IMG/VR virus record: IMGVR_UViG_3300031992_000018
Span: 1-64,000 of that record
DNA: 64,000 nucleotides
Strand: one strand, 5' to 3'
Source: a virus
Lineage: Duplodnaviria; Caudoviricetes
The notes under the pieces were generated by a model. It was not told the DNA's origin and did not search any database. It worked only from the letters and a program-made list of their open reading frames with translations. The position numbers and the translations under genes are program-made. This document shows, in pieces, positions 1,168-32,679 of the stretch (position 1 is the stretch's first letter; every line of letters starts with the position of its first letter).

Positions 1168-1205
1168 AAGAGTTCTAATATGAAAATATTAGGACTCTTT
1201 TTTTT
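1168..1205 (+). terminator. Intrinsic terminator
   Basis: AAGAGTTCTAATAT-GAAA-ATATTAGGACTCTT followed by a T run. Confidence 0.8.
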
Positions 1206-1228
1206 ATGTATAATTAATTAGAAAATAA

Positions 1229-1240
1229 TATTTTTATATA
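1229..1240 (+). promoter_or_regulatory. Putative late-promoter motif TATTTTTATATA
   Basis: Identical 12-mer also at 7401, 8805, 26750, 39390 and 50068(-), each just upstream of a start codon. Confidence 0.55.
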
Positions 1241-1262
1241 GAAATAAATTTAGTCTTATTAA

Positions 1263-4200
1263 ATGATGTCTATATTTTCATATATTAATGAAAATCTCGA
1301 AGATAAAAAGAAAGAAGAAGGATTAAGTATTCTTGATAAATCTTTAAATGGTGATAATGAAGAAATAAAAGAATTTGAAAAATTACTTCGTCCAAATGGT
1401 CCATGTATTTATGCATTTATTACTGATAAAGTAAATGATGCTATAAAAATTGGATATACTGATCAGCATCCACTTAAAAGAATAGAACAATGGAAAGAAG
1501 TATATGGAAAAGAAGAAGGTGAAGTAGAATGTCTTGGTTATTGGAGTAGTGAAGAAATTGATCAGAGTGGACAGAAAGTATTTTTCTGGGATCATGCTGT
1601 ACATGATAAAGTAACAAAGAAAGGATATGCTAATATTTCAAAAGAGCAATTTTATAAAATATTATCAGAAAAGGGTAAGAAAGTAAATGATGTTCATGAG
1701 CTTCATTATTCAAAAGAATTCTTCAGTAAATATAAGACTCTTTTAAAAGGACAATTATCAGATGAAGATAAAGTAGAATTATCTAAAGAATTAATTGAAG
1801 ATATTCTTATAGAAATGAAAAAATCTATTAAAGATGGAAAATCAGATTTTAAGTTATATAAATTTGATTCATCAGGTAAGACATCAAGTCAAAAGGCTGA
1901 TATTGTATGGGGTTCTCCTAAAGATTATCCAAATACAGATCTACAGGAAGATTGTATAAAGAAAGGTGTAGAAGCTATCAAGAAAGGTAAAAAGAATATT
2001 CTTATGGCTGCTGTTATGCGTTTTGGTAAGACTCATGCAGCATATGAAATAATAAAAGGATCTGGATTAAAAAGAATAGTTGTAGTATCTGCTAAAGCTG
2101 ATGTAAGAAAGGCTTGGAGAGATGATATTAACCATAAAGATTTTTATAAAGATTTTGTATTTGTAGAAGTATTAGATGAATTTAATTGGGATATTACATC
2201 TCTTGGATCTGATGAAAAATTAGTTACTAAGCATGAAAGAGTATATGAAGACACTGATATATTTGATATGTATGAGAATAAGACAATTATCTTTTTCTTT
2301 ACACTTCATGATCTATCAGGTTCACTTAATGAAATAAAATCAAAACATAAAAAGATATTTGATGAAGAATTTGATATGATGGTAGTTGATGAAACTCATT
2401 ATGGTTCTCATGCAAATTCATTTGGTAAAGTAACTAAATTAAATAAGAATATAGAAGTTGAAGATAATGCTGATTTTGAAGAAGAGGAAAAGATTGCTAA
2501 AGAGATGGAATCATTCAAAAATAAATTGAATATTAAATATAAAACAGTTCTTCAAGTTTCTGGTACACCATATTATATTCTTGCTTCTAATGAAATGATT
2601 GAAGATGATGCTGAGGTTATTTCTAAAGTATCATATACAGATATGTTAAATGCAAGAGATAAATGGGAGAAAGATCATCCAAATGAACCAAAATCAAATT
2701 CTCCTTATTATGGTGTTCCAACACTTCATAAAATTGGTCTTAGATTAACAAAAGAATGCCGTAGAGCTATTCAAAAATCAAATACGACTGATTCATTAAG
2801 TGCTTTGTTTGAAGTTAAATCTGGCAAGTTTAGATATGAAAAAGAGATAACTGGATTAATAAAAAGTTTATTTGGAGATGATAAAGAAGATACCTTTGCA
2901 TTCCTTAAGAATAAATCTGTAGAAGGTAATAAAGTTTGTAAGCATACTATTATGGTTCTTCCAAGAATAGAAGCATGTAAAGTAATGGAAAATCTTCTTA
3001 AAGAAATGAAGATTAACAGAGATATTATTCGTGTAGTTGGAAATGAAGGTAAATCAAATATAGATATTGAAACACTTAATAACAGATTGCTTGAAGATGA
3101 TGATAAGAATATAAAATCTATTGTATTGACCGTAAATAGATATTTGACTGGTGTTTCTATGCCTCTTATTGATTCTATGATATATCTTAAAAATGCTTCA
3201 TCACCACAAGAATATGATCAGAATATATTCAGACTTTGTACAAGAAATGTAAAGAAGGTTTCTAAAGGTGATAATGAAGAAGGACCTGAATATGTAAATA
3301 TGAAAGATAATGTATATTTGATAGACTTTAATATATCAAATATGTTCAATATGCTTGCTAATTCTGCTAAGATGAGAGCTTTAGCTGATGCTAAAGATGA
3401 TAAGAATATAAATATCATGGATAGAATAGCAGAATATATGAAAGAAGATCTTAAGAGTATTCCACTTTATTGTGAAGATGGTAAGAGTAAAGAAATTACT
3501 GGTAAGATGAAAGTAATTAACTCTAATGATCTTATGGAAATATATGCAAACTATAATAAAGATAAGAGTATAGCAGATGTAGCGAATGATGAAATTAATC
3601 TTTTTGATGGATTATTCGGTGATAAGAAATTCCAAGAAGTAATAAATGGAATGAATATAGAAGGAGATAAAAGTAAAATCAATATTGATGGTGTAAATGC
3701 TGATGGAGAAGATACTATAAATGTAGATAGTGGAAATGGTAAGAAATCACTTAAGGATTATGCCATTGATAAATTACCTGAAAAGAAACTTGAGAAAATT
3801 ACTAAAGAAAAATTCAAGAGCATAGTAAAAGGAATTCTATATTGTAATATTACTCTTGATAATCCTTATACAGATATCAAATCAATGATAGATGATTCAA
3901 AGAATGATGATGAACTTAGAGAAGCACTTAAAGACTTTAAGATTACTGTAGATGATATTGAAAAAGTATATGATATAATGTCACCTACATATAAAGAATC
4001 ATTTGATTATTTGTTATTGAAGATTTCATACTTAGCTCATGAAATCAAAGAGAAAGGTTCTGATGCTCTTGATAAAGCAATGCGTGGTCTTGGTAAGATA
4101 GATAAAAGTGAAGTTGTAACGCCGCCTGAAATTGTAAATAAGATGATTGACAAATTAGATGAATCAGATTATAAGAATGCAGAATCTATATTACTTGTAA

Positions 4201-5258
4201 ATGAAAAACAAGGTGAATTCTTCAAAGGATTGATTAGAAAATTCGGTAAAGAAATTGGTAAGAAATGTAAAATAGTCTGCTCAAGCAGTGTAGGTGAAAG
4301 ACTTACAAAGAAAATGTTGAAAACAGAAGGATTTAATGACTATATTAATAATATAATTATGTCCATTGGCGATGTCAATGGAGATGGTAAATATACTGTA
4401 AATGATTTCTTAGATATGAAGAATGAAGATATATTGAAAGAGAATGGTGGAAAGAAGTTTGATATTGTATTAATGAATCCACCATTTCAGGGGGCAACAT
4501 TACATTTGCAATTTATTGAAAAATGTATAGAAGTTTCTGAAAATACAATAGCTATATGTCCGGCTTCTTGGATAGATGACTATGCTGTAGTTGATGGTTG
4601 GAAGAAATCTCCAAAACAAAGATACATAACAAAATTAGGTAAACATCTTATTGATTATGAATATTTTAAGCCAGAAGATTTCCAAAAGATATTTAATATT
4701 GCAACTTGGACATCTGGAATGATAGGTTTATTTAATAGTAATAAAACATCTGAATTATATAAGTCAATAAGTAATAATCAAACAAGTAAGTTTGACAAAG
4801 AAATAATTGAAAAAGCAGCAAAGCTTATTTATACTGGACAACAGACTTCGGTAACAAAAATGTATAGGAAACATAAAGGAGAAGATGGATATGACTGGTT
4901 TATAAAACTTACAAGAGTTCATGGTCACATTAATAACAAAGACCAATATGATAATATAGCTCCTGATATAAAATATTCATTAAATATAAAAGACAAAGAG
5001 CAAAAAGAAGTTTATTTTAAGACAAAAAATGAGGCAGTAAATTTCTTTGAGTCAATAAAAACTACATTTTGTAAATACTTGAAGAAACTTGGATGTTATG
5101 GTTCTGGTGATTTTAATGGAGGATTACCATTTATGAATGATTATACTAAACCTTGGACAACACACAGGTTCTGTGAATACTTCGGTATAAGCAAAGATAC
5201 TGAAGACTATATAGATAAGTTTTTTGAAGAATTTTATAAAAGTTTTGAAAATGAATAA
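1263..5258 (+). CDS. Restriction-modification-like fusion: T5orf172/GIY-YIG-like nuclease + SF2 (ResIII-like) helicase + Eco57I-like N6-adenine methyltransferase; N-terminal capsid-targeting-like tag
   Basis: IYAF..IKIGYT..RIEQW; Walker A MRFGKT; VVDETH; SGTP; LTGVS..ID; VVTP; FDIVLMNPPF; N-terminus MMSIFSYINE. Confidence 0.8.
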   Translation: MMSIFSYINENLEDKKKEEGLSILDKSLNGDNEEIKEFEKLLRPNGPCIYAFITDKVNDAIKIGYTDQHPLKRIEQWKEVYGKEEGEVECLGYWSSEEIDQSGQKVFFWDHAVHDKVTKKGYANISKEQFYKILSEKGKKVNDVHELHYSKEFFSKYKTLLKGQLSDEDKVELSKELIEDILIEMKKSIKDGKSDFKLYKFDSSGKTSSQKADIVWGSPKDYPNTDLQEDCIKKGVEAIKKGKKNILMAAVMRFGKTHAAYEIIKGSGLKRIVVVSAKADVRKAWRDDINHKDFYKDFVFVEVLDEFNWDITSLGSDEKLVTKHERVYEDTDIFDMYENKTIIFFFTLHDLSGSLNEIKSKHKKIFDEEFDMMVVDETHYGSHANSFGKVTKLNKNIEVEDNADFEEEEKIAKEMESFKNKLNIKYKTVLQVSGTPYYILASNEMIEDDAEVISKVSYTDMLNARDKWEKDHPNEPKSNSPYYGVPTLHKIGLRLTKECRRAIQKSNTTDSLSALFEVKSGKFRYEKEITGLIKSLFGDDKEDTFAFLKNKSVEGNKVCKHTIMVLPRIEACKVMENLLKEMKINRDIIRVVGNEGKSNIDIETLNNRLLEDDDKNIKSIVLTVNRYLTGVSMPLIDSMIYLKNASSPQEYDQNIFRLCTRNVKKVSKGDNEEGPEYVNMKDNVYLIDFNISNMFNMLANSAKMRALADAKDDKNINIMDRIAEYMKEDLKSIPLYCEDGKSKEITGKMKVINSNDLMEIYANYNKDKSIADVANDEINLFDGLFGDKKFQEVINGMNIEGDKSKINIDGVNADGEDTINVDSGNGKKSLKDYAIDKLPEKKLEKITKEKFKSIVKGILYCNITLDNPYTDIKSMIDDSKNDDELREALKDFKITVDDIEKVYDIMSPTYKESFDYLLLKISYLAHEIKEKGSDALDKAMRGLGKIDKSEVVTPPEIVNKMIDKLDESDYKNAESILLVNEKQGEFFKGLIRKFGKEIGKKCKIVCSSSVGERLTKKMLKTEGFNDYINNIIMSIGDVNGDGKYTVNDFLDMKNEDILKENGGKKFDIVLMNPPFQGATLHLQFIEKCIEVSENTIAICPASWIDDYAVVDGWKKSPKQRYITKLGKHLIDYEYFKPEDFQKIFNIATWTSGMIGLFNSNKTSELYKSISNNQTSKFDKEIIEKAAKLIYTGQQTSVTKMYRKHKGEDGYDWFIKLTRVHGHINNKDQYDNIAPDIKYSLNIKDKEQKEVYFKTKNEAVNFFESIKTTFCKYLKKLGCYGSGDFNGGLPFMNDYTKPWTTHRFCEYFGISKDTEDYIDKFFEEFYKSFENE

Positions 5259-5763
5259 ATTCAACATAGAAAAATTCCTTTCTCTTGAAGGTTATGATAC
5301 AGATACTAGAGTATCTAGGCGTAAGAATTCTGATATCAATTCTCAAGAATTCTTCACTCCTTATTCTATAGTCAAGCGAATGTGTGATAAGGTATCTGAT
5401 GAAGATTGGGCAGATCCGAATAAGACATTCTGTGAACCTTGTTTTGGAAATGGTCAATTTTTGATATACATTATATATAATAGGATTCTTCATGGAGTAT
5501 CTTGGAAAAGAGCACTTGAAACTACTTATGGTCTTGAATTAATGGAAGATAATGTAATTGAGACTTATGAAAGAATTCTTAGTCTTCTTGATTCTTTAGA
5601 CGAATATGGAATTATTAAAGATTATGAAATAAATAGTATTCAAGAAGCTATGGATATAATGAAAAAGAATCTTGTTTGTCATGATTTCTTTACATGGAAT
5701 TTTGAGCAATGGAGAGAATATACAGAAGATGAATTGAAAGAAATAAATAAAAAGAGGAAATAA
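5251..5763 (+). CDS. N6-adenine methyltransferase SAM-binding module (partner of the upstream enzyme)
   Basis: QEFFTP, FCEPCFGNGQFL (motif I), YGLEL, LVCHDF; no NPPY/F motif; ATG overlaps the upstream stop. Confidence 0.75.
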   Translation: MNKFNIEKFLSLEGYDTDTRVSRRKNSDINSQEFFTPYSIVKRMCDKVSDEDWADPNKTFCEPCFGNGQFLIYIIYNRILHGVSWKRALETTYGLELMEDNVIETYERILSLLDSLDEYGIIKDYEINSIQEAMDIMKKNLVCHDFFTWNFEQWREYTEDELKEINKKRK

Positions 5764-5790
5764 TGAATTTCCTCTTTTTTATTCTATATT
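5751..5790 (+). terminator. Terminator hairpin overlapping an early-type promoter motif
   Basis: AAAGAGGAAAT/ATTTCCTCTTT stem; TGAA at 5764, CTATATT at 5784. Confidence 0.65.
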
Positions 5791-5818: not shown

Positions 5819-6412
5819 ATGACTGAAAAAGAATTTGTTAAAAAATATAATGTTAATCCAGAAATGGATGAAAGAACATTTACTGAAATTTTAAATTTTA
5901 ATAATAATGTAATGCATATTTCAAATTTTATAAAGATTTGTAAAAAAGCATCTAAAAAACTTGATAAAAGAATTAAACATGATATAGATATTATAGATCC
6001 AAGGAATCAATGTTGGGGTGGTGCATTTGATAGACTTATTGCAAATATTATTAATGATTATCAAAATAAATTTAAATATAGAAGATGTTTAAATCATAAT
6101 ACAGAAAGAGATTGTGTTTGTATAGATAATAATTCTAATGATATTGAAGTAAAAACAGCATTATATAATCTTGATAATAATAATTGGAATGGTTTTTATA
6201 CAAGTAAATGTAAAAATTATGAAAACTCTCCTAAATATAATTCTCCAGATGAATATGATTACTATTTATTTGTAAGATTAAATAGAAATTCTGAAACATG
6301 TATTACAAAAGTAAAAGAAATTTATTTTGGTCGTATATGTGAAGATTTTTGGAAAGATAATGGATCAATAAGTATAAAAGTAATAAATAAAAATTGTGTA
6401 AGAATTTTATAA
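5819..6412 (+). CDS. Putative PD-(D/E)XK nuclease (restriction endonuclease-like)
   Basis: FD..RD...DIEVKT motif; located beside methyltransferases. Confidence 0.5.
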   Translation: MTEKEFVKKYNVNPEMDERTFTEILNFNNNVMHISNFIKICKKASKKLDKRIKHDIDIIDPRNQCWGGAFDRLIANIINDYQNKFKYRRCLNHNTERDCVCIDNNSNDIEVKTALYNLDNNNWNGFYTSKCKNYENSPKYNSPDEYDYYLFVRLNRNSETCITKVKEIYFGRICEDFWKDNGSISIKVINKNCVRIL

Positions 6413-6450: not shown

Positions 6451-7080
6451 ATGAAACAGATAGATACATATATAAAAGAGAATACAGAGTATAAAGATTA
6501 TACTTGTTATTTTGCTGATGATATTTCTACAGGATCTCCAAAAGATTTATTTCTTTCAGCATTTGTTGAAGAGTATATATTTAAATTATATTATGAAAGA
6601 AGAAGTGGTGTAAAAGTTATTAAAACAAATGAAGAAAATAAATCTGTAAAAGATAATTGGAATCACATTGATATAAAAACAAATCATAGTAATATTGATA
6701 TAAAAACTATAAGTAGAAAATGGAATTCTATTTCAGTAAATACTTCAATGTTAAATTCTAAAGTTAATATTGGTACTATAATAGAAGATAATGATAAAAT
6801 ATATATTGTAGTAAATGATATTAAAAAAATAAAAGATAAAGGAAAAGATAAAGGAAAATTCAGAGTATTTACAATTCCTATTTTATTAGAAGATCCATTA
6901 TATAAAACAGAATTATATTCTGATTTATCTGAAAAATATAAAAAATTAATTAAATTATATAATATTATACATGATTATAATAATGAAGGATTAAAAGAAT
7001 ATTCAAAAATAGTTCTTGATAAACTTACTCCTGTATTTCAAAAAGAATTTGGTTTAACTCCAAAAATAGAATTTGTATAA
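6451..7080 (+). CDS. Putative PD-(D/E)XK-like nuclease with capsid-targeting-like N-terminus
   Basis: VEEY..HID..IDIKT; N-terminus MKQIDTYIKE (ATG at 6451 preferred over the GTG at 6394). Confidence 0.4.
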   Translation: MKQIDTYIKENTEYKDYTCYFADDISTGSPKDLFLSAFVEEYIFKLYYERRSGVKVIKTNEENKSVKDNWNHIDIKTNHSNIDIKTISRKWNSISVNTSMLNSKVNIGTIIEDNDKIYIVVNDIKKIKDKGKDKGKFRVFTIPILLEDPLYKTELYSDLSEKYKKLIKLYNIIHDYNNEGLKEYSKIVLDKLTPVFQKEFGLTPKIEFV

Positions 7081-7426: not shown

Positions 7427-7954
7427 ATGAAAGAACTTAATACATATATAATAGAAAAATTACATTTAAATAAGGATATTAAACCAGTATATCATTATCA
7501 ACCTAAAGATAAGCAAGAATTAAAAATATTAATTGAAAAACTTATTAAAGAAAGAGGTAATGATGCTGATTTAAATGATATAGATGTTAGTAAAGTTACT
7601 GAAATGTATAGGTTATTTTATAAATCTAATTTTAATGGTGATATATCTAAATGGAATGTAAGTAATGTTAAATATATGGATAAAATGTTTTCTGATTCTG
7701 ATTTTAATGGTGATATATCATCTTGGGATGTAAGTAATGTTGAAGATATGTCTAGTATGTTTTTTAATTCTAAATTTAATGGAGATATTTCTAAATGGGA
7801 TGTAAGTAAAGTTGAAAATATGGAATATATGTTTAATGGATCAGATTTTAATGGAGATATATCAGATTGGGATGTTAGTAATGTTAATGATATGATAGAA
7901 ATGTTTATGTATTCTCCTTTACAAAATAATCCTCCTAAATGGTATCATGAATAA
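7427..7954 (+). CDS. DUF285/BspA-type repeat protein with capsid-targeting-like N-terminus
   Basis: Four FNGDISxWxVSxVxxMxxMF repeats; N-terminus MKELNTYIIEKLHLNKD. Confidence 0.85.
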   Translation: MKELNTYIIEKLHLNKDIKPVYHYQPKDKQELKILIEKLIKERGNDADLNDIDVSKVTEMYRLFYKSNFNGDISKWNVSNVKYMDKMFSDSDFNGDISSWDVSNVEDMSSMFFNSKFNGDISKWDVSKVENMEYMFNGSDFNGDISDWDVSNVNDMIEMFMYSPLQNNPPKWYHE

Positions 7955-8420
7955 TTTAAGTACATATATAGTTGAGAAACTTCATCTTAACAAAGATATT
8001 AAAATGACATCTAATAATTTTAAAAAAGATGAAGATTTCTTATGTGTTGGTTTATATATTAATACTGATAAAGAAATAAATATTAAATTATATAATTTTC
8101 TTTTTGAATCTTTTAAAGAATTATCATCAGATAATGAATTTAGTTATATATCTGATGGAAGAATTATTACAAAAAAGGTATTCAAAAATAATAATGGATA
8201 TTATGAATATTCTAGTAAAAATTACAGAAAACCTGGAGATTATATATCAGCAATATTTATAGATAAAAAAGACAGTATAATTTTTTTAAACTCATTATTG
8301 AATAACAATTTTAATATACATAATTATTTTGATAAACGAAATGATGATGAATTAAAACAATATAATATCATAAATCCTTCTAATGAAGAAATTAAAGAAA
8401 TGATAAATCAATTAAAATAA
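7947..8420 (+). CDS. Hypothetical protein with capsid-targeting-like N-terminus
   Basis: MNNLSTYIVEKLHLNKDIK, shared with the 7427 and 28248 ORFs. Confidence 0.7.
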   Translation: MNNLSTYIVEKLHLNKDIKMTSNNFKKDEDFLCVGLYINTDKEINIKLYNFLFESFKELSSDNEFSYISDGRIITKKVFKNNNGYYEYSSKNYRKPGDYISAIFIDKKDSIIFLNSLLNNNFNIHNYFDKRNDDELKQYNIINPSNEEIKEMINQLK

Positions 8421-12919: not shown

Positions 12920-14869
12920 TTAAAATGAATATAAATCCATACCTTGTGACATATACATATTTCCCAACATATCCATTTCATTTGTATTATTAGAAAATGG
13001 ATCAGAAATAGTAATTATATTATTTATAGAATTATATATATTTATTGATTCAAGTTCTTGATAATTATTGTCATTATTAGATTTATTCATTAATTGCATT
13101 GTTTCTATTTCTTCAACAATATCTTTATATTTAGGAGTATTTTTTAACATTGGTATCTGACAAAGAGTCATAACAATATCATCGTGACCTGATGATGCTT
13201 GATAAGAACCATTACCATTTTTATCTTCAAAGTTTTCTATTTCTCCTATAGTTCTAAGATCAGTAATTTCAATATTGAATTTTTCAAGTTCCATTTTAAG
13301 AAGTGCGCAAGCTGTCTTCTTATTATTAGCAGTAAATTTAATTCCTGGAATAGTTTTTCTCTTAGAATTATTATGTCCAGGTATATTTTCATCTTCTGGT
13401 CCTTTTTTATATTGTATCAATCTTGTTGTATCAAATCCTTGACTAGATATATTAAATCTCCATAAAGATTCTCTCATATAATCTGGTTCATTTAAATTAA
13501 GTATATATTGATAAAAAAGAGCACCATATGTATTCCATTCTATTGAGAATATACACCTGTCATTATTAAATAATTGATTACATAATAACCAATATTCAAG
13601 AGCTGCATGTTCAAGATCAAGATTATTACATTTCCAATAACCAACTTGTTTGAATTTATCTTTACCAGTCATTTGTAATATATGAAATACTGTATTATCA
13701 GCATCACCTCCACCACCTTCAGCAAGGTCAGCAAGTATTACAAAATAACCAGTCTTTAATTCTTCAGTATCAAAATTTGGATGCCAATATAAACAATCTT
13801 TTTTCTGTATATATATTTCAAAGTCTGGTCTTGATTCAAATAATATTGATTTATCTCTAAGTACACCAAGACATTCTCTTGAAACAAGACATAAATCTGA
13901 TGCAGCAAATTCTGTACCAAATTGATAATAGAAAGCTTCTTTACTTCCTAATTTACCAATCATTTCATTTTTCCATTTTTCTGTTCTCTTTTCCCATTTC
14001 TTAGTATCTTTATTAAATTGTGGTACTTGATCCCAGTCTACTTTAAATGGAGCATAACCATTTCTTTTTTCTATAGCTCCTTTATATAATTCATAAAATA
14101 GATTAAATCCATTTTGTGTACTCATAATAGCAACATGAGCATTAGGAAGAGTTACTACAGTAGGAAGAATATTCTGATAGAAAAGTTCTACATCATTCTT
14201 AGGACACCAAGCAAACTCATCAAGAATAAGGAAGTTGATAGTTTTACCAAGTCCAGCTGTTGGTGAGAAAGCTTCAGTTGAAATTGATGAGTTATTATCA
14301 AAAGATATTTCATGTTGGTTCCATTTCATTGTACCAGCCTTAAGATAATAAGGAAGATTAAGGTACATATCTTTAAGTTTTGAAAGAAGGTCAATACCTG
14401 CAGGACCTGATTTTGAAAGAATAAGTCCTGTCATATCAATATTGAAAAGAATAACCCAAAGACAGAATATCGCAGTAGTTGTTGATTTACCAGCTTGACG
14501 GCATGATAACATAATTGTAAAATTATTCTTCTGGAGCATTCTTAAATATTCAACCTGATAATCTCTTAAGACACATGGTCTAAGTCCTTCTGGTGTCATA
14601 AGAAAGCACTTAGAAGCGAAATAAACAGGATCTTCCTTACATTTTTTATAGTCATCAACTTCTTCTTGAGTTCTTTTATATACTAAATCTGGTTTTAACA
14701 ATTGAACATTCTTTCCACAAAAAGGATTACTTTTAAGAGGTAAACCTTTCTTTATAGCATCAACAGCTAATTTAAATGCCTTTGTTGTCCATACAATTCT
14801 TTCAGCCGCTTGTCCATTAATTGTTTCCTTTACAGGATTAAATTCATAAACAAATTCTTTTTTAGCCAT
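12920..14869 (-). CDS. Terminase large subunit (T4 gp17-like)
   Basis: C..DPVYF, LRDYQ, SCRQAGKSTT (Walker A), LILDEFA (Walker B), STQNG, ADLAEG, GHDDIVM; probable start MAKKEF at 14869. Confidence 0.95.
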   Translation of the reverse strand: MAKKEFVYEFNPVKETINGQAAERIVWTTKAFKLAVDAIKKGLPLKSNPFCGKNVQLLKPDLVYKRTQEEVDDYKKCKEDPVYFASKCFLMTPEGLRPCVLRDYQVEYLRMLQKNNFTIMLSCRQAGKSTTTAIFCLWVILFNIDMTGLILSKSGPAGIDLLSKLKDMYLNLPYYLKAGTMKWNQHEISFDNNSSISTEAFSPTAGLGKTINFLILDEFAWCPKNDVELFYQNILPTVVTLPNAHVAIMSTQNGFNLFYELYKGAIEKRNGYAPFKVDWDQVPQFNKDTKKWEKRTEKWKNEMIGKLGSKEAFYYQFGTEFAASDLCLVSRECLGVLRDKSILFESRPDFEIYIQKKDCLYWHPNFDTEELKTGYFVILADLAEGGGGDADNTVFHILQMTGKDKFKQVGYWKCNNLDLEHAALEYWLLCNQLFNNDRCIFSIEWNTYGALFYQYILNLNEPDYMRESLWRFNISSQGFDTTRLIQYKKGPEDENIPGHNNSKRKTIPGIKFTANNKKTACALLKMELEKFNIEITDLRTIGEIENFEDKNGNGSYQASSGHDDIVMTLCQIPMLKNTPKYKDIVEEIETMQLMNKSNNDNNYQELESINIYNSINNIITISDPFSNNTNEMDMLGNMYMSQGMDLYSF

Positions 14870-14920
14870 AAAATTTATAAAAATATTACTATATTTTATA
14901 TATAACAATAAATAAAAAAT

Positions 14921-15412
14921 ATGAAAAGTATTGAAAGATATATTCTAGAAGGTTCTAGATTTGTAGTTTTTGTAATGTGTGGTCTTCCTGGATCTGGTAA
15001 ATCTACATGGGCTAAGGAGAACCATCCAGATTTGACTATTGTTTCTAGAGATGTTATTCGTGCAAAACTTGGTTTTACTAAGGATGCTGATGAAAAGGCT
15101 GTTCTTACTGCAGGCCAAGAAAAACAAGTAACTACAGAGGAATATTGGCAGATATCTAAACTTGCTAAGAAGAAACAGTCATTTATTGTAGATGATACAA
15201 ATTCAGTACCTAAATATAGAAAGGAATTACTTAAGACTCTTAAAAATTATGGAGCTAAGATAATTGGTGTTAATATTGAAACACCATTAGAAATTTGTAT
15301 TAACCGTCGTAAAGGACAAATTCCTAAAGATGTAATGGAACGTCTTGCTGCTAAAAGACTTCCTCTTAGAAAAGAAGATGTAGATGAACTATTAAATGTA
15401 AAAGGTTACTAA
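14921..15412 (+). CDS. AAA_33/polynucleotide-kinase-like P-loop kinase with capsid-targeting-like N-terminus
   Basis: MCGLPGSGKST, SRDVIR, IVDDTN, TPLEICINR; N-terminus MKSIERYILE. Confidence 0.85.
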   Translation: MKSIERYILEGSRFVVFVMCGLPGSGKSTWAKENHPDLTIVSRDVIRAKLGFTKDADEKAVLTAGQEKQVTTEEYWQISKLAKKKQSFIVDDTNSVPKYRKELLKTLKNYGAKIIGVNIETPLEICINRRKGQIPKDVMERLAAKRLPLRKEDVDELLNVKGY

Positions 15413-18310: not shown

Positions 18311-20122
18311 TTATGCTTGTGTAGTTTCACTTGATTCTGGTTGTACATCACCTAACATTTCACTATCAATTTCTCCTCCACTTTCTTCACTTTCAGCTCC
18401 GCTTTCTTCACCACCTTCTTTTCCACCACCTTCTTCTCCTTCTGTTCCAGTTTCTTCATCTCCTCCCATTTCTTCATCTTCTTCTCCTCCTTCAGCTCCA
18501 CCAGCATTCTTTCTTCTCTTCTTTTCTTCTTTCATCTTCTTATTAAGTTCAAGATCAGCTTCACTCATCTTAAGATACTTAATAATCAAGAATTCTGGAT
18601 CAAAGAATGGTTCTTCTTCACCTTCATCATTTGTTATTACTAAGCTATCCTTCATTGTACCAATGAATTCAACTCTCTTAGTCATAACTTCCATTTCAGC
18701 AAGCTCTGTAAACTGGTTATATGAATTAAAATGAAGAGATATTGAATCAAGTATTCTCTTATCATTCTTTATATCTGGTATATTAAGTGCAATCTGAATT
18801 CTTATAGGTTTAAGAATAATTTCAGAAAAAGCACTTCTCATTCTTGTTACAAATCTTGAGAAATTAATTTCATCTCTTAATTGTTGTGTAGGATCAGAAC
18901 CAAACCAAGTTGCTTGTGCTTCTCTATCAAAATGAGATTCTGGAATTTTACTCATCTTATAAAGATTTGATAAGAAGTATTTAATTTGGTCACTATCATT
19001 AAGTTGTGGACCATTATCAACAATTGTTTCAATCTGTGGAGTACCAGCTTCATTTTCAGGCATCCAATATTCTTTATTAAATGGCATATTTACTTTACCA
19101 TTTACTTGAAGTTCACCAGTATCTACATTGAAAGATATATCTTCTTTATATCTGTTCATTGCTTGAGAAAGAGTCTGCATACCCTTTGCTTTATTCATTC
19201 CATTTATAGGAATAGTAAACATTGTCTTAAATGAAGATTGAGTTACTGTCCAAATAATCTGTGCTTGTTCAACAATACGGTAAATATTGAATGGACGAAT
19301 AAGACGTTCAAGATATGACTGTCTTTCTGTTACACCTGTATCTTCATATTTTACATAGATAATTTGTATATCAAGAAGATATCTTTCTTTACCTTGAATA
19401 CCTTTGAATTGTACCCAATATGTTGTTCCATTTTTAACAACTTTTGTTAAAGTAACTGGGTCAAGATCTATTATACCAATAATTGAATGAGGATTTTCAA
19501 GGTCATCATAAATAATTTCATATGCAAGAATACCTTCAATTAACCATCTCTTAAAATCATCCCATGCATTTCTTTTCCAGTTAAGGAACATATACATTTT
19601 ATAGAATACTGTATCAACAGCATTTCTAAGTTCTTCAGCTGATTTTTCAGTTAATTGTTGTGTAAGACCAGTATCGATAAATGGTTGAGCAATATATGCG
19701 TCGTCGTCATCATATACAATACATTCATTAGACATAACATCAAGAATATCTTCGAGTTCAGGTTGAGCAGCCATTTTTCTAAGAATTACTCTCTTTTGTT
19801 CAAGAGTTTTCTCTCTAAAATCCTTATCTTCTTCACCTTTTTGTTTCCAGTTATTCATCATACCACCATAGATTGACTGGTTTAATAACAAGTCATCTTG
19901 AGGTTGAAGTTGTTTATCAGCTGGAATAGCTCTCATATTCTTCATTATATCATCAGAATAATTCATTCCATAATGAGATAATGAATAAAGTATTTTAGAA
20001 ATTCTACTTTGTTTTTTAACTGTTTGATTACTTAACATTTGTTGTGTTAAGATATTAGATTCAACAGCTTCCATTATATTTTGTTCATTTTCTAGAACAT
20101 TATTTAAATTACCGAATACCAT
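18311..20122 (-). CDS. Portal protein (T4 gp20-like)
   Basis: PELEDILD.MSNECIV, SYLERLIRPFN, EYWMP, YF...LY..SKIP.S, RDEINFSRFV.RMR; acidic C-terminal tail. Confidence 0.92.
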   Translation of the reverse strand: MVFGNLNNVLENEQNIMEAVESNILTQQMLSNQTVKKQSRISKILYSLSHYGMNYSDDIMKNMRAIPADKQLQPQDDLLLNQSIYGGMMNNWKQKGEEDKDFREKTLEQKRVILRKMAAQPELEDILDVMSNECIVYDDDDAYIAQPFIDTGLTQQLTEKSAEELRNAVDTVFYKMYMFLNWKRNAWDDFKRWLIEGILAYEIIYDDLENPHSIIGIIDLDPVTLTKVVKNGTTYWVQFKGIQGKERYLLDIQIIYVKYEDTGVTERQSYLERLIRPFNIYRIVEQAQIIWTVTQSSFKTMFTIPINGMNKAKGMQTLSQAMNRYKEDISFNVDTGELQVNGKVNMPFNKEYWMPENEAGTPQIETIVDNGPQLNDSDQIKYFLSNLYKMSKIPESHFDREAQATWFGSDPTQQLRDEINFSRFVTRMRSAFSEIILKPIRIQIALNIPDIKNDKRILDSISLHFNSYNQFTELAEMEVMTKRVEFIGTMKDSLVITNDEGEEEPFFDPEFLIIKYLKMSEADLELNKKMKEEKKRRKNAGGAEGGEEDEEMGGDEETGTEGEEGGGKEGGEESGAESEESGGEIDSEMLGDVQPESSETTQA

Positions 20123-20489: not shown

Positions 20490-21599
20490 ATGGCAAATAC
20501 TATTACAAAAAACATTACTGTGGCTCAGAGTGCAACTGTAGCAGGTTACGATTATGAGAAGCGTCTTGCAGCTCTCACACCAGAAGAACGTTCCAAGTAC
20601 CTTGCACTCACTGAAAAGGTCGATGTTCATAACCTTACTACGGTTCATGAATATGGTTCCGAGCTTAATTCTGTAGTTGCTGAGAATGGTGAGAGGTTCC
20701 TAAAGTCCGTCAAGGCTGGTGATGGCGGTGAGATTGTTCAACTTACCACTGACTTGCTTGCTCAGCTTAACATGATTAACATTGATGAGATCAATACTGA
20801 TACTACTTGGAAGAATTTCCTTAGGAAGCTTCCTGTTGTTAGGAAGTTTGTCACTACAATTGAGAATGTAAAGATTAAGTACAATGACATTGCTCAGAAC
20901 GTAAATGCTATCGCTGAAAAGATGGGTGATGCAAAGCTTGTTGCTTTGACTGATAACTCTACTCTTCAGGAAATTTTCGATAACAATGTAACTTACATTG
21001 ACCGTCTGCGTGAACTTATTCTTGGTGCTAAGGTTCTCCTTGAAGAGTCAGAGAAAAAGTATAAGCATATGAAGGAGAATATCGGTGAATATGAGAATTA
21101 TGAAATGTCTGAGATGCAGGATTTCATTGGTTCTCTTCAGAAGCGTATTGCTGATATGCAGGTAACCGAGGCTGTTCTTCAGCAGAACCTTCTTCAGATT
21201 CGTGCAACTCAGGGTAATAACCTTGCTATCGCCGAAAAGAGTAATAACATTGTTACTAATGTAATTCCTCTTTGGAAGAATCAACTTTCCATTGCGGTTA
21301 TCATGAATAACCAGAAGAAGAATGTTGAGGCTCAGCAGATGTTGACTGAAACAACTAATAAGATTCTTGCTGAAAATGCTAAGAATTTGCATACTAACTC
21401 TGTTGCTGTCGCTAAGGCTAATGAAGAGTCTGTTATCTCTCTTGAGACTCTTAAGACTACTACTAATGAACTTATCGCAACTATCAAGGAAGTTGAGAGA
21501 ATTCATGCTGATGGCGCTCATCAGAGGGAACTTATCGAAAAGGAACTGCATACTATGGCTGTTCAGCTTCAGGATGCTATTACTACTAATGATAAGTAA
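20490..21599 (+). CDS. telA: Toxic anion (tellurite) resistance protein, TelA family
   Basis: Helical protein with YG, L..DN..L, Q..N..L..K, IPLWKNQL, E...I..ETL motifs. Confidence 0.85.
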   Translation: MANTITKNITVAQSATVAGYDYEKRLAALTPEERSKYLALTEKVDVHNLTTVHEYGSELNSVVAENGERFLKSVKAGDGGEIVQLTTDLLAQLNMINIDEINTDTTWKNFLRKLPVVRKFVTTIENVKIKYNDIAQNVNAIAEKMGDAKLVALTDNSTLQEIFDNNVTYIDRLRELILGAKVLLEESEKKYKHMKENIGEYENYEMSEMQDFIGSLQKRIADMQVTEAVLQQNLLQIRATQGNNLAIAEKSNNIVTNVIPLWKNQLSIAVIMNNQKKNVEAQQMLTETTNKILAENAKNLHTNSVAVAKANEESVISLETLKTTTNELIATIKEVERIHADGAHQRELIEKELHTMAVQLQDAITTNDK

Positions 21600-31170: not shown

Positions 31171-32679
31171 ATGTCACAATTAGGATATATACATAATACT
31201 TATGGTAAACAAATAAACATTGGTATAGCTAATACATATTCTTATAATGTTGCTTCTGGAGTTAATCTCTCTAGAAACACAATCATTATTTCTTCTAATG
31301 TAAATGAAGATGGAGATGATACAGGAACTTATTCATTGTTTATAACTGATAATAATGGTACACCAGTAAGACTTACTTATAATATATCTCAAGGAAATGG
31401 TTTATATTATTCACAACAAGGAGATTATCTTTCATTATATATAGACAATGATACAATTATATCTGAAAATAATCAATTAAAATTTAATATTAACAATCAT
31501 TTAGGAGAATCATTCTCTTATGAAAATAATAAAATTGAATTGAATGAATTAATAATACCTAATTCTTCATATAAAAATTTTGGTATTTCAAGTATTGATA
31601 ATGAAACAATAAGAAATGATGAAGATACAATATATGTAAATACTCAATCATTGAAATATTCAAATAATTCAACATCAACATATGGTATTGCTATTGGTGA
31701 TGGTAATACAATAATTACTGAAAATGGTAAAATTTTAGTAAATATTGAATCATTTGATAAAGCAAATAATGAAACTTTTGGATTTATTAAAGGAGATAAT
31801 AATACAATTGATATTAAAGATGGTATTATTTCAGTTGTTACTAAAAACCTAAATCTTGGTACTTCTAAAAATCAAGGAATAGCAAAACCTGATAACAATA
31901 CAATAATATTCAATGATAAAAAGCAAATAACTGTAAATGAAAATAATTTAAATATTGCAACACCATCATCATATGGTTTATCAAAAATTGATATAAATAC
32001 AATATCAATAAAAGATAATAAAATTTCAATGAAAGATTATGATGATATTAAATCATCAATATTAAATTATAAAAATGAATATATCAGTTATGTAAATGAA
32101 TATAAAAGTTTAAATGAATACTTAAAATCTGGTAATGTTTTATTAAGAGATAAAAATATTCAGTTATTTAGTATCAATGAAAAATCTGTAACTGAACTTA
32201 GTAAACCTAAAAAGGATGAAGAAGTTATTAATATGGAAACTCAATATGTATCTATAGAGTTTAATATAATAACAACATGCGATTTTATAATGAATATACA
32301 TTTTGAAGAAGGAACAAATGAATTCCCAAATGTTGATATTGTAGAAGTTAATTATAATACTAAAAAAATATATACAAGAGAAGAAGCATTAAATCCTAAA
32401 ACAGTATATCCTTCAACAAATGGAGAACTTATGAAATTTATTGTAAAATTATCAGCAAAGAATTTTAGAAATTCAACAAAAGGACAATCATTAGTAACAT
32501 CAATAAACTTTATAATTTCAAATGCTGAAGATCATAATAAACAGAAAAATGAAAAATATTCAATTATAAGATATAATTCATTATATAAAGAAAAAACTAA
32601 TGAAGATTCAACTAAAAATGAAAATTCAAATAGTGTATATGTTTTAAAGAGTGATAATATAACATGGTCATTCATTTAA
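31171..32679 (+). CDS. Tail-fibre-like protein, paralog family member 1
   Basis: Shared N-domain (LG.I...YG.Q.NIG..NTY..G.YS....D..G.PVRLTY) plus (Y/F)G...D..TI....G repeats. Confidence 0.65.
   Translation: MSQLGYIHNTYGKQINIGIANTYSYNVASGVNLSRNTIIISSNVNEDGDDTGTYSLFITDNNGTPVRLTYNISQGNGLYYSQQGDYLSLYIDNDTIISENNQLKFNINNHLGESFSYENNKIELNELIIPNSSYKNFGISSIDNETIRNDEDTIYVNTQSLKYSNNSTSTYGIAIGDGNTIITENGKILVNIESFDKANNETFGFIKGDNNTIDIKDGIISVVTKNLNLGTSKNQGIAKPDNNTIIFNDKKQITVNENNLNIATPSSYGLSKIDINTISIKDNKISMKDYDDIKSSILNYKNEYISYVNEYKSLNEYLKSGNVLLRDKNIQLFSINEKSVTELSKPKKDEEVINMETQYVSIEFNIITTCDFIMNIHFEEGTNEFPNVDIVEVNYNTKKIYTREEALNPKTVYPSTNGELMKFIVKLSAKNFRNSTKGQSLVTSINFIISNAEDHNKQKNEKYSIIRYNSLYKEKTNEDSTKNENSNSVYVLKSDNITWSFI

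Follow-up and report, generated by a model that had tools for sequence, protein, structure and literature searches.

A putative capsid-addressed nuclease-motor-methylase and its half-methylase partner in a large T4-related phage

Introduction

The proteins that phages are known to inject include inhibitors, RNA polymerases, ADP-ribosyltransferases and DNA protectors. This study concerns a two-gene operon near the start of a viral record from IMG/VR (IMGVR_UViG_3300031992_000018; Duplodnaviria, Caudoviricetes), in which a large protein with nuclease, motor and methylase domains starts with a short tag resembling the head-targeting signal of phage T4 and is followed by a small half-methylase. 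The window is the whole stretch of 64,000 nucleotides analyzed (positions 1 to 64,000 of the record), and makes up the start of a viral contig that is 168,026 bp long, has a G+C content of 25% and is estimated to be 59% complete.

The closest described systems each share a part of this design. The Type ISP enzymes LlaGI and LlaBIII, found on Lactococcus plasmids, resemble the large protein in combining an N-terminal nuclease, a superfamily 2 (SF2) motor, a gamma-class methylase and a C-terminal target-recognition domain (TRD); between these two enzymes the first three modules are near-identical and the TRD is swapped (PMC3553950). The DnmA-YeeB-YeeC cluster of Bacillus subtilis and Vibrio, which encodes an MmeI/Eco57I-like adenine methylase, an SF2 helicase and a T5orf172 protein (PMC9973331), brings together the same three activities. 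The likeness is at the level of domain families, and the cluster differs in that its three genes are separate and differently ordered and in that no half-methylase partner has been described for it. In phage P1, the 250-kDa DarB protein combines a methylase with an SF2 helicase, carries an N-terminal packaging signal, is loaded into the head and is delivered with the DNA (PMC9024508, PMC5512222). The large protein is likewise a very large methylase-helicase protein, with predicted delivery into the cell. Finally, the ten residues MKTYQEFIAE form the experimentally defined capsid-targeting sequence (CTS) of T4 and are enough for targeting to the head (PMC9026906, PMC3012670). No paper joining a capsid-targeting sequence with a restriction-type enzyme was found.

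The favored explanation, to which we assign a probability of roughly 0.45, is that the operon encodes an ATP-dependent, two-component restriction-modification-like machine that would be loaded into the head by its tag, ejected with the genome and set to cut unmarked DNA. Judged from the sequence, the enzyme is probably injected together with the phage DNA; loading into the prohead and delivery with the DNA is the best reading because the tag is phage-specific, the head is of the T4 type and the operon is preceded by a late-type motif. The domain make-up, the homology to a bacterial family, the phage-specific tag, the conserved operon and partner, the hypervariability of the presumed TRD and the shared upstream motif are direct observations, from which we infer the steps of packaging, clipping, delivery and attack.

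Results and Discussion

An N-terminal tag specific to the phage lineage

The large gene is an open reading frame (ORF) that is open from 1263 to 5258 (+ strand), and its 1,331-residue product starts with MMSIFSYINE (1263..1292, + strand), a T4 CTS-like tag that ends at Glu10. The original prediction had pointed to this start as a tag, a claim borne out by its likeness to the N-terminus of T4 IPII and IPIII (MKTYQEFIAE in T4 record AF158101) and by its enrichment on the contig. The pattern M-x(1,2)-[LIVFM]-x-x-[YFL]-[ILVY]-x-E stands at the start of 25 of the 220 non-overlapping contig ORFs, compared to 0.07 expected from one internal match in 50,144 positions. A T4 CTS-like N-terminus is also found in 108 of the 115 N-terminally complete homologues of the phage clade, and Glu10 is invariant in a 31-sequence phage alignment. 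The family consensus, MKSIxQYIxEAR followed by Lys/Glu-rich residues, is nearer to T4's MKTYQEFIAEAR than the window protein's own copy is. The contigs carrying homologues are 340-400 kb long and rich in small unannotated genes, and two of them have the tag at 11 of 24 and 12 of 27 ORFs, respectively, in the neighborhood of the homologue, the homologue itself included.

The tag shares with the T4 proteins IPI-III and Alt a ten-residue N-terminal motif, the same hydrophobic spacing, a terminal Glu and a T4-type portal in the same genome, and, as with the T4 tag, many unrelated proteins that could be cargo carry it. The difference lies in the cargo, which here would be a 155-kDa three-enzyme machine rather than a small inhibitor or an ADP-ribosyltransferase.

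Between the tag and the first domain lies a Lys/Glu-rich linker with short helices (residues 11-45; 1293..1397, + strand), recognized from alignments and from low values of the predicted local distance difference test (pLDDT) in an AlphaFold model of the N-terminal region (51-65 for residues 1-45, compared to more than 90 for most of residues 48-210). The linker is mostly specific to the phage clade, although its SILDK part aligns with the start of the bacterial homologues. The N-termini of the latter, on which the capsid-addressing idea makes a prediction, read M-(3-10 residues)-ILDxxIxGRVxP-IYAF; about 15-20 residues precede IYAF, and neither a tag nor a Lys/Glu-rich linker is present. The original prediction had named an equal N-terminus in bacterial homologues as grounds for its refutation, and this comparison came out in its favor. 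Because the bacterial homologues do not have them, about 25 N-terminal residues are an addition to, or at least a feature of, the phage lineage, as the idea predicts.

Other tagged proteins in the window include a P-loop protein of the AAA_33/polynucleotide-kinase-like type that starts with MKSIERYILE (14921-15412, + strand) and a DUF285 protein (7427-7954, + strand; PF03382, E 7.8e-44). The ORF next to the latter (7947-8420, + strand) has no Pfam match and has the extended start xYIxEKLHLNK in common with it.

Domain organization of the large protein

The large protein had been described as a T5orf172-like nuclease, SF2 ATPase and NPPF methylase in a single chain, and all of the named motifs are present: IYAF at residue 49, KIGYT at 62, GKT at 255, DETH at 376, SGTP at 433, VVTP at 951, LLVNEKQGEF at 977 and NPPF at 1072. 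The first domain (residues ~46-215; 1398..1907, + strand) is T5orf172/GIY-YIG-like, and its residues Y50, F52, K62, G64, R73, W77, D110, H114, S150, E152 and F153 are invariant from phages to bacteria. PF10544 (T5orf172) matches 13 of the 30 aligned N-terminal domains of homologues (best E 4.7e-7) and does not match the window's own sequence. In VIA-align, the model comes closest to At-HIGLE (Z 4.7) and Slx1 (Z 4.1 and 3.8), both of them GIY-YIG nucleases and both weak matches, and a Foldseek search with the N-terminal model gave no match.

The SF2 helicase/translocase motor follows (residues ~226-700; 1938..3362, + strand). ResIII, at residues 226-395 (E 5.1e-9), is the sole Pfam match of the window's large protein, and the motor motifs GKT (255-257), DETH (376-379) and SGTP (433-436) as well as Q649, R657 and R661 are invariant in the 31 phage sequences. 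A conserved middle region (residues ~701-939; 3363..4079, + strand; conservation 0.37-0.55 per 50-residue block) may couple the motor to the methylase.

The gamma-class N6-adenine methylase domain (4080..4577, + strand) contains motif X (VVTP), a variant motif I (LLVNEKQGEF), motif III (NDFL) and motif IV (NPPF), and motifs X, III and IV are invariant in the phage alignment. The PHROGs family phrog_799 (DNA methyltransferase) matches residues 1044-1120, PF07669 (Eco57I) matches homologues of the large protein, and the family profile finds a weak METTL5 match at the NPPF region among PDB sequences. No restriction enzyme was matched among PDB sequences, either by phmmer with the single sequence or with the family profile; this includes the solved LlaGI and LlaBIII chains, to which a distant kinship is possible. 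Motif I reads ILD(I/V)ASKxGEF in bacteria, ILEVNSKNGEF in a sister phage copy and ILLVNEKQGEF in the tagged clade, with N980, K982, E985 and F986 invariant in phages. The motif for binding S-adenosylmethionine (SAM) had been called degenerate in the original prediction; its non-canonical form is real, but a decay specific to the phage is not, as bacteria carry the variant too.

The last domain (residues 1106-1331; 4578..5258, + strand) is hypervariable, with a conservation of 0.10-0.27 per block. Over residues 1-1100 the nearest relatives share 82-94% identity, a value that falls to 33% or less over fragments of residues 1106-1331, and from this variability the domain is presumed to be the TRD. 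This pattern, a conserved core and about 225 C-terminal residues that cannot be aligned among nearest relatives, is like that of LlaGI and LlaBIII. The large protein differs from the Type ISP enzymes in its nuclease (T5orf172/GIY-YIG-like versus Mrr/PD-(D/E)xK), in its non-canonical motif I, in residing in the genome of a giant phage of lytic type and in its capsid-targeting-like tag.

These domains bear on whether a packaged enzyme would attack or protect. It is possible, if unlikely, that the enzyme is packaged and injected but acts as P1 DarB does, moving along the entering phage DNA and methylating or shielding it in cis ahead of the host restriction enzymes, and attacking nothing. DarB, which joins a methylase to an SF2 helicase, is packaged and acts in cis to protect DNA (PMC5512222, PMC9024508), sets the precedent, the tag and the late-type motif fit such a role equally, and a hypervariable TRD could follow the differing specificities of host restriction systems. 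However, the phage clade keeps invariant nuclease residues that an enzyme with a purely protective role could do without, motif I is non-canonical, and the order nuclease-motor-methylase-TRD is that of Type ISP rather than the DarB methylase-SNF2 dyad (PMC5512222). DarB itself has the order LPD36, EcoKI/TaqI-like methylase and SNF2 helicase, with no nuclease or TRD, and no DarB-like match was found in the phage or family searches made with the large protein. We know of no consensus for the P1 packaging signal. An offensive role is favored over a purely protective one because all three catalytic modules are under purifying selection.

The half-methylase partner

The partner gene (5251..5763, + strand), which overlaps the end of the large gene by 8 nt, has its ATG start at 5251 and encodes 170 residues. 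Terminator-like hairpins and the motif at 1229 bound both genes, which therefore form one discrete operon. The upstream hairpin (1168..1207, + strand) resembles an intrinsic terminator, with a stem of 14 pairs at 1168-1199 followed by TTTTTTAT, and closes the preceding unit, which includes a tRNA-Thr gene and a small region; the downstream hairpin (5749..5787, + strand) has a stem of 13 pairs at 5749-5779 followed by a T-rich tail and closes the two-gene operon.

As had been noted from the sequence, this overlapping ORF combines a canonical motif I with the lack of NPPY. A motif scan of the 170 residues agrees, finding motifs X (FFTP, residue 34), I (EPCFGNGQF, 62), II (YGLELMEDN, 93) and III (CHDFF, 143) and no (N/D/S)PP(Y/F/W) motif IV. 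Conserved residues are E62-P63, G66, G68, F70, E96 and D/N145. The predicted structure (pLDDT 91) is that of the SAM-binding half of an N6-adenine methylase, with CamA, HsdM, MmeI, LlaBIII and also LlaGI as its PDB neighbors, at weak E-values near 0.01. An hhalign comparison places the partner profile on residues 947-1037 of the large protein (probability 54%, E 1e-4). A search for a longer, fused version of the partner gave none, which is weak evidence.

The partner matches phrog_21201, and its homologues fall into 659 clusters, all of 150-180 residues; the related Atlas clusters are all viral. In all phage-clade loci examined it follows the large gene; among them is a Lak-like one in which the large protein is only about 35% identical and the partner 55%. 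From this conservation, the half-methylase is read as a dedicated companion of methylase modules of the large-protein type. Whereas a single polypeptide suffices for both restriction and modification in Type ISP systems, which cleave through translocation and collision, the conserved partner gene suggests two components here.

A split form of the module was observed in two viral contigs (L068, 4036-8194; L072, 5194-9123), where an SF2 helicase of 745-774 residues is followed by a methylase of 421-435 residues and then by an ORF2-like half-methylase that overlaps it by a few bases. The methylases of these split modules have a canonical motif I (DPGFGFGGY in L072 and DPCCGRGTF in L068) plus NPPY/F.

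The partner raises the question of which protein binds SAM. We consider it very unlikely that the large protein is crippled as a methylase and works as an ATP-driven, site-specific nuclease or motor while the partner supplies SAM binding or sensing in trans. In favor of such a split methylase, motif I of the phage clade has lost its acidic residue and has Lys in place of the first Gly, motif II of the large protein also has no acidic residue (S1007 and S1008 are invariant), and the partner, a paralogue of residues 947-1037, retains its own conserved motif residues and is predicted to fold as a SAM-binding half. However, bacterial enzymes with nearly the same variant of motif I still carry NPPY, ORF2-like partners also follow methylases with a canonical motif I (L072 and L068), and the large protein's own motifs X, III and IV are present and invariant. 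The related idea that the partner repairs a decayed motif I was rejected on the first two of these grounds.

Bacterial homologues and phylogeny

The original prediction had placed the large protein in a bacterial-type defense family, and the comparison upholds this part: the PADLOC model REase_MTase_IIG (PDLC03626) matches residues 46-999 with an E-value of 3.7e-71, and 48 bacterial loci were found in a scan of one genome per prokaryotic species. These loci belong to Bacteroidota, Bacillota, Actinomycetota, Spirochaetota, Verrucomicrobiota, Saccharimonadota and others. Their proteins (1300-1400 residues; 24-28% identity over residues 47-1104) have the same length, module order, nuclease residues, motor motifs and K-x-G-E-F motif I as the phage protein, and carry NPPY. 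A bacterial member (L043) matches PDLC03626 with 1473 bits over its full length, and the alignment between phages and bacteria extends on through the methylase domain. A 20-residue insertion of the phage clade is absent from the bacterial homologues.

The bacterial loci also have a second gene. In 41 of about 45 loci, the large gene is immediately preceded by a gene of about 330 residues that matches PADLOC MTase_II (PDLC03390; E about 1e-116) and, weakly, the partner profile. Motifs X, I, II and III are present in the six sequences inspected, and none of the six has a (N/D/S)PP(Y/F/W) motif, so the name "Type II methyltransferase" may be wrong for this companion. The bacterial large proteins are true homologues of the phage protein and have a half-methylase-like partner; the difference lies in the position and size of that partner (upstream and about 330 residues in bacteria, downstream and 150-180 residues in phages). 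No experimental study of this two-gene family, with its T5orf172-motor-methylase protein and half-methylase, was found in the literature.

At least 237 protein clusters resemble the large protein, and 119 homologue clusters among those listed are 42-94% identical to it. Viral contigs were scanned with an alignment, as a scan with the single sequence gave one fragment only. In an unrooted FastTree phylogeny, the tagged sequences form one clade (support 100) whose sister is a Lak-like megaphage copy together with another giant-phage copy, the bacterial sequences being set apart by a long branch. The earlier claim that the phage had captured the enzyme, which implies a direction of transfer, is not borne out by the long branch, the unrooted tree and the 24-28% identity to bacteria, and a recent capture from bacteria was rejected since the clade is deep and sits on a long branch of an unrooted tree.

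Homologues of 1795-1927 residues in three viral contigs of 233-412 kb (L064, L065 and L067) group with the bacterial side of the tree and have 240-270 extra N-terminal residues starting with CTS-like strings (MLNLKSFEDFLNE, MLKPRTFKEFLARL). The L065 and L067 genomes carry an S77 protease. Such starts hint that the enzyme family was addressed a second time, independently.

The Lak-like homologue (L055, 7734-12134 of a 553-kb IMG/VR contig) is open only when TAG is read as a residue, with 27 in-frame TAG codons, and its N-terminus is a Q/N/D-rich extension of about 100 residues with no clear tag. TAG recoding is known for Lak megaphages, and the reading of this gene is consistent with it.

Upstream motifs and head machinery

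The late-type motif that had been noticed upstream of the large gene is present and is common to the portal gene and a baseplate operon. It is position-locked (TATTTTTATATAG at 1229..1241, + strand, 34 nt before the ATG) and is a candidate late-type promoter element. Its core TATTTTTA (also given as tTATTTTTAtata) lies within 60 nt upstream of 28 contig ORFs, and within 80-nt upstream windows it is found at 30 ORFs compared to 5.5 expected, mostly 28-35 nt from the start codon; example sites are 1229, 8805, 20164 (minus strand) and 39390. Among the members of this class are the portal gene (18311-20122), the large-gene operon and the first genes of both the baseplate-wedge operon and tagged-gene operons, along with several very large ORFs that have no annotation. 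The label "late" is inferred because the portal and baseplate genes share the motif. A second motif, CTATATTA (tttCTATATTA), precedes 24 other ORFs, again mostly at 28-35 nt from the start, and these look mostly metabolic. The two motifs probably mark two promoter classes.

The contig is part of a large T4-related phage, judging by its genes for the large terminase (12920-14908, minus strand), for a portal of the T4 gp20 type (18311-20122, minus strand; matched by PF07230 with E 1.4e-73) and for a DNA polymerase. Among phage genomes with a homologue of the large protein, four others contain an S77 domain. The relative G007 (240 kb, complete; portal 57% identical) also encodes an S77 protease, and the tag stands at the start of 13 of its ORFs, the background being 5 internal matches in 68,774 positions.

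Several points weigh against packaging and attack. Packaging is read from a likeness over ten residues, and the window protein's tag departs from the family consensus in having M at position 2, S at position 6 and N after the Glu. The tagged gene at 6451 lies 13 nt behind CTATATTA and not behind TATTTTTA. Searches of the 59%-complete contig with a profile and by tblastn with the proteases of four relatives gave no S77 (gp21) protease and no gp23. The complete relative that has tags and protease has no homologue of the large protein; the tag system and the T4-type protease therefore co-occur in this phage group with the enzyme as accessory cargo, and tag and protease are not jointly established in one genome that also has the large gene. 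The nearest homologues outside the tagged clade, the Lak-like L055 and L056, have no clear tag. The partner protein is untagged, and because the bacterial family is a near-obligate two-gene operon, a packaged large subunit might arrive without a partner that it needs, unless the partner is carried along with it. Lastly, motif I of the tagged clade has neither the usual acidic residue nor the first glycine, and with the acidic residue lost, methylase activity is plausible but uncertain.

Some of these points, namely the untagged partner of a family that operates as two genes in bacteria, the missing protease and capsid genes and the untagged Lak-like and L056 homologues, are what would be expected if the enzyme were not packaged but acted within the infected cell, as an ordinary system of restriction-modification or exclusion carried by the phage. 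Its N-terminal motif would then have another use, as a translation start context, in assembly with other tagged proteins or as a recombination junction of cassette genes. We regard this as rather unlikely. The tag is kept at the protein level in about 110 diverged homologues, with an invariant Glu while other residues vary, it was gained only in the phage lineage, and it matches the experimentally defined T4 signal (PMC9026906). In addition, late expression of an early-acting enzyme makes little sense unless the enzyme is packaged.

Proposed mode of action

Under the favored explanation, in which a restriction-modification-like machine is loaded into the head and ejected with the genome, the large protein would have gained about 25 N-terminal residues, starting with a T4-type capsid-targeting sequence, in the phage lineage. 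The enzyme would be made late, drawn into the prohead core by its tag, and clipped after Glu10 by a gp21-type protease. Next to the packaged DNA it would be kept inert, as ATP is absent there, until it is ejected into the next cell together with the genome. The methylase-TRD unit would then recognize its site, the motor would translocate at the expense of ATP, and DNA without the phage's marks would be cut by the N-terminal nuclease, as in a Type ISP-like enzyme. Targets could be the host chromosome, competing phages or plasmids.

A more far-reaching version, which we regard as doubtful, is that the virions of a widespread clade of T4-like giant phages of the gut and rumen carry a ready-made, sequence-specific restriction motor, with a specificity domain that close relatives exchange, whose untagged partner stays behind in the producing cell. 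The separation of the two would provide a switch from a safe state during assembly, modifying or inhibited, to an attacking state on arrival. Such a pre-loaded restriction weapon, used to take over the host or to exclude other phages, would be a type of virion cargo that has not been described.

Genomic neighborhood

Just upstream of the operon lie a tRNA-Thr(TGT) gene (918-991) and an ORF for an S24-like peptidase (539-862; PF00717, E 2.4e-5), the latter being 94% identical to a copy in a 344-kb contig that carries another homologue of the large protein (L001). On the other side, the genes at 5819-6412 and 6451-7080 adjoin the operon and are not conserved together with the module. A TelA-like protein (20490-21599, + strand; PF05816, E 6.9e-68) adjoins the portal region, and a thymidylate-synthase-like gene lies at 130568-131146 of the full contig (PF00303, E 4e-8). 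The latter would agree with a modified phage DNA, which might help the enzyme to distinguish self from non-self. Four large ORFs starting at 31171, 38417, 39425 and 43736 (+ strand; 502, 320, 1432 and 485 residues, respectively) have near-identical first ~25 residues (MSKLGYIxNSYGKQFNIGISNTY). From these starts they look like a paralogous set of fiber-like proteins with a common N-terminal attachment module.

Implications

The large gene and its partner are widespread in phages, Lak-like megaphages included, and their comparison exposes a bacterial two-gene family that databases label as a Type IIG enzyme plus a methyltransferase. For phages beyond the T-evens, the tag provides a simple means of testing how proteins are loaded. 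If the favored explanation is true, an injected, ATP-driven restriction-type nuclease with swappable specificity would represent a new offensive class in which the usual roles of restriction are reversed.

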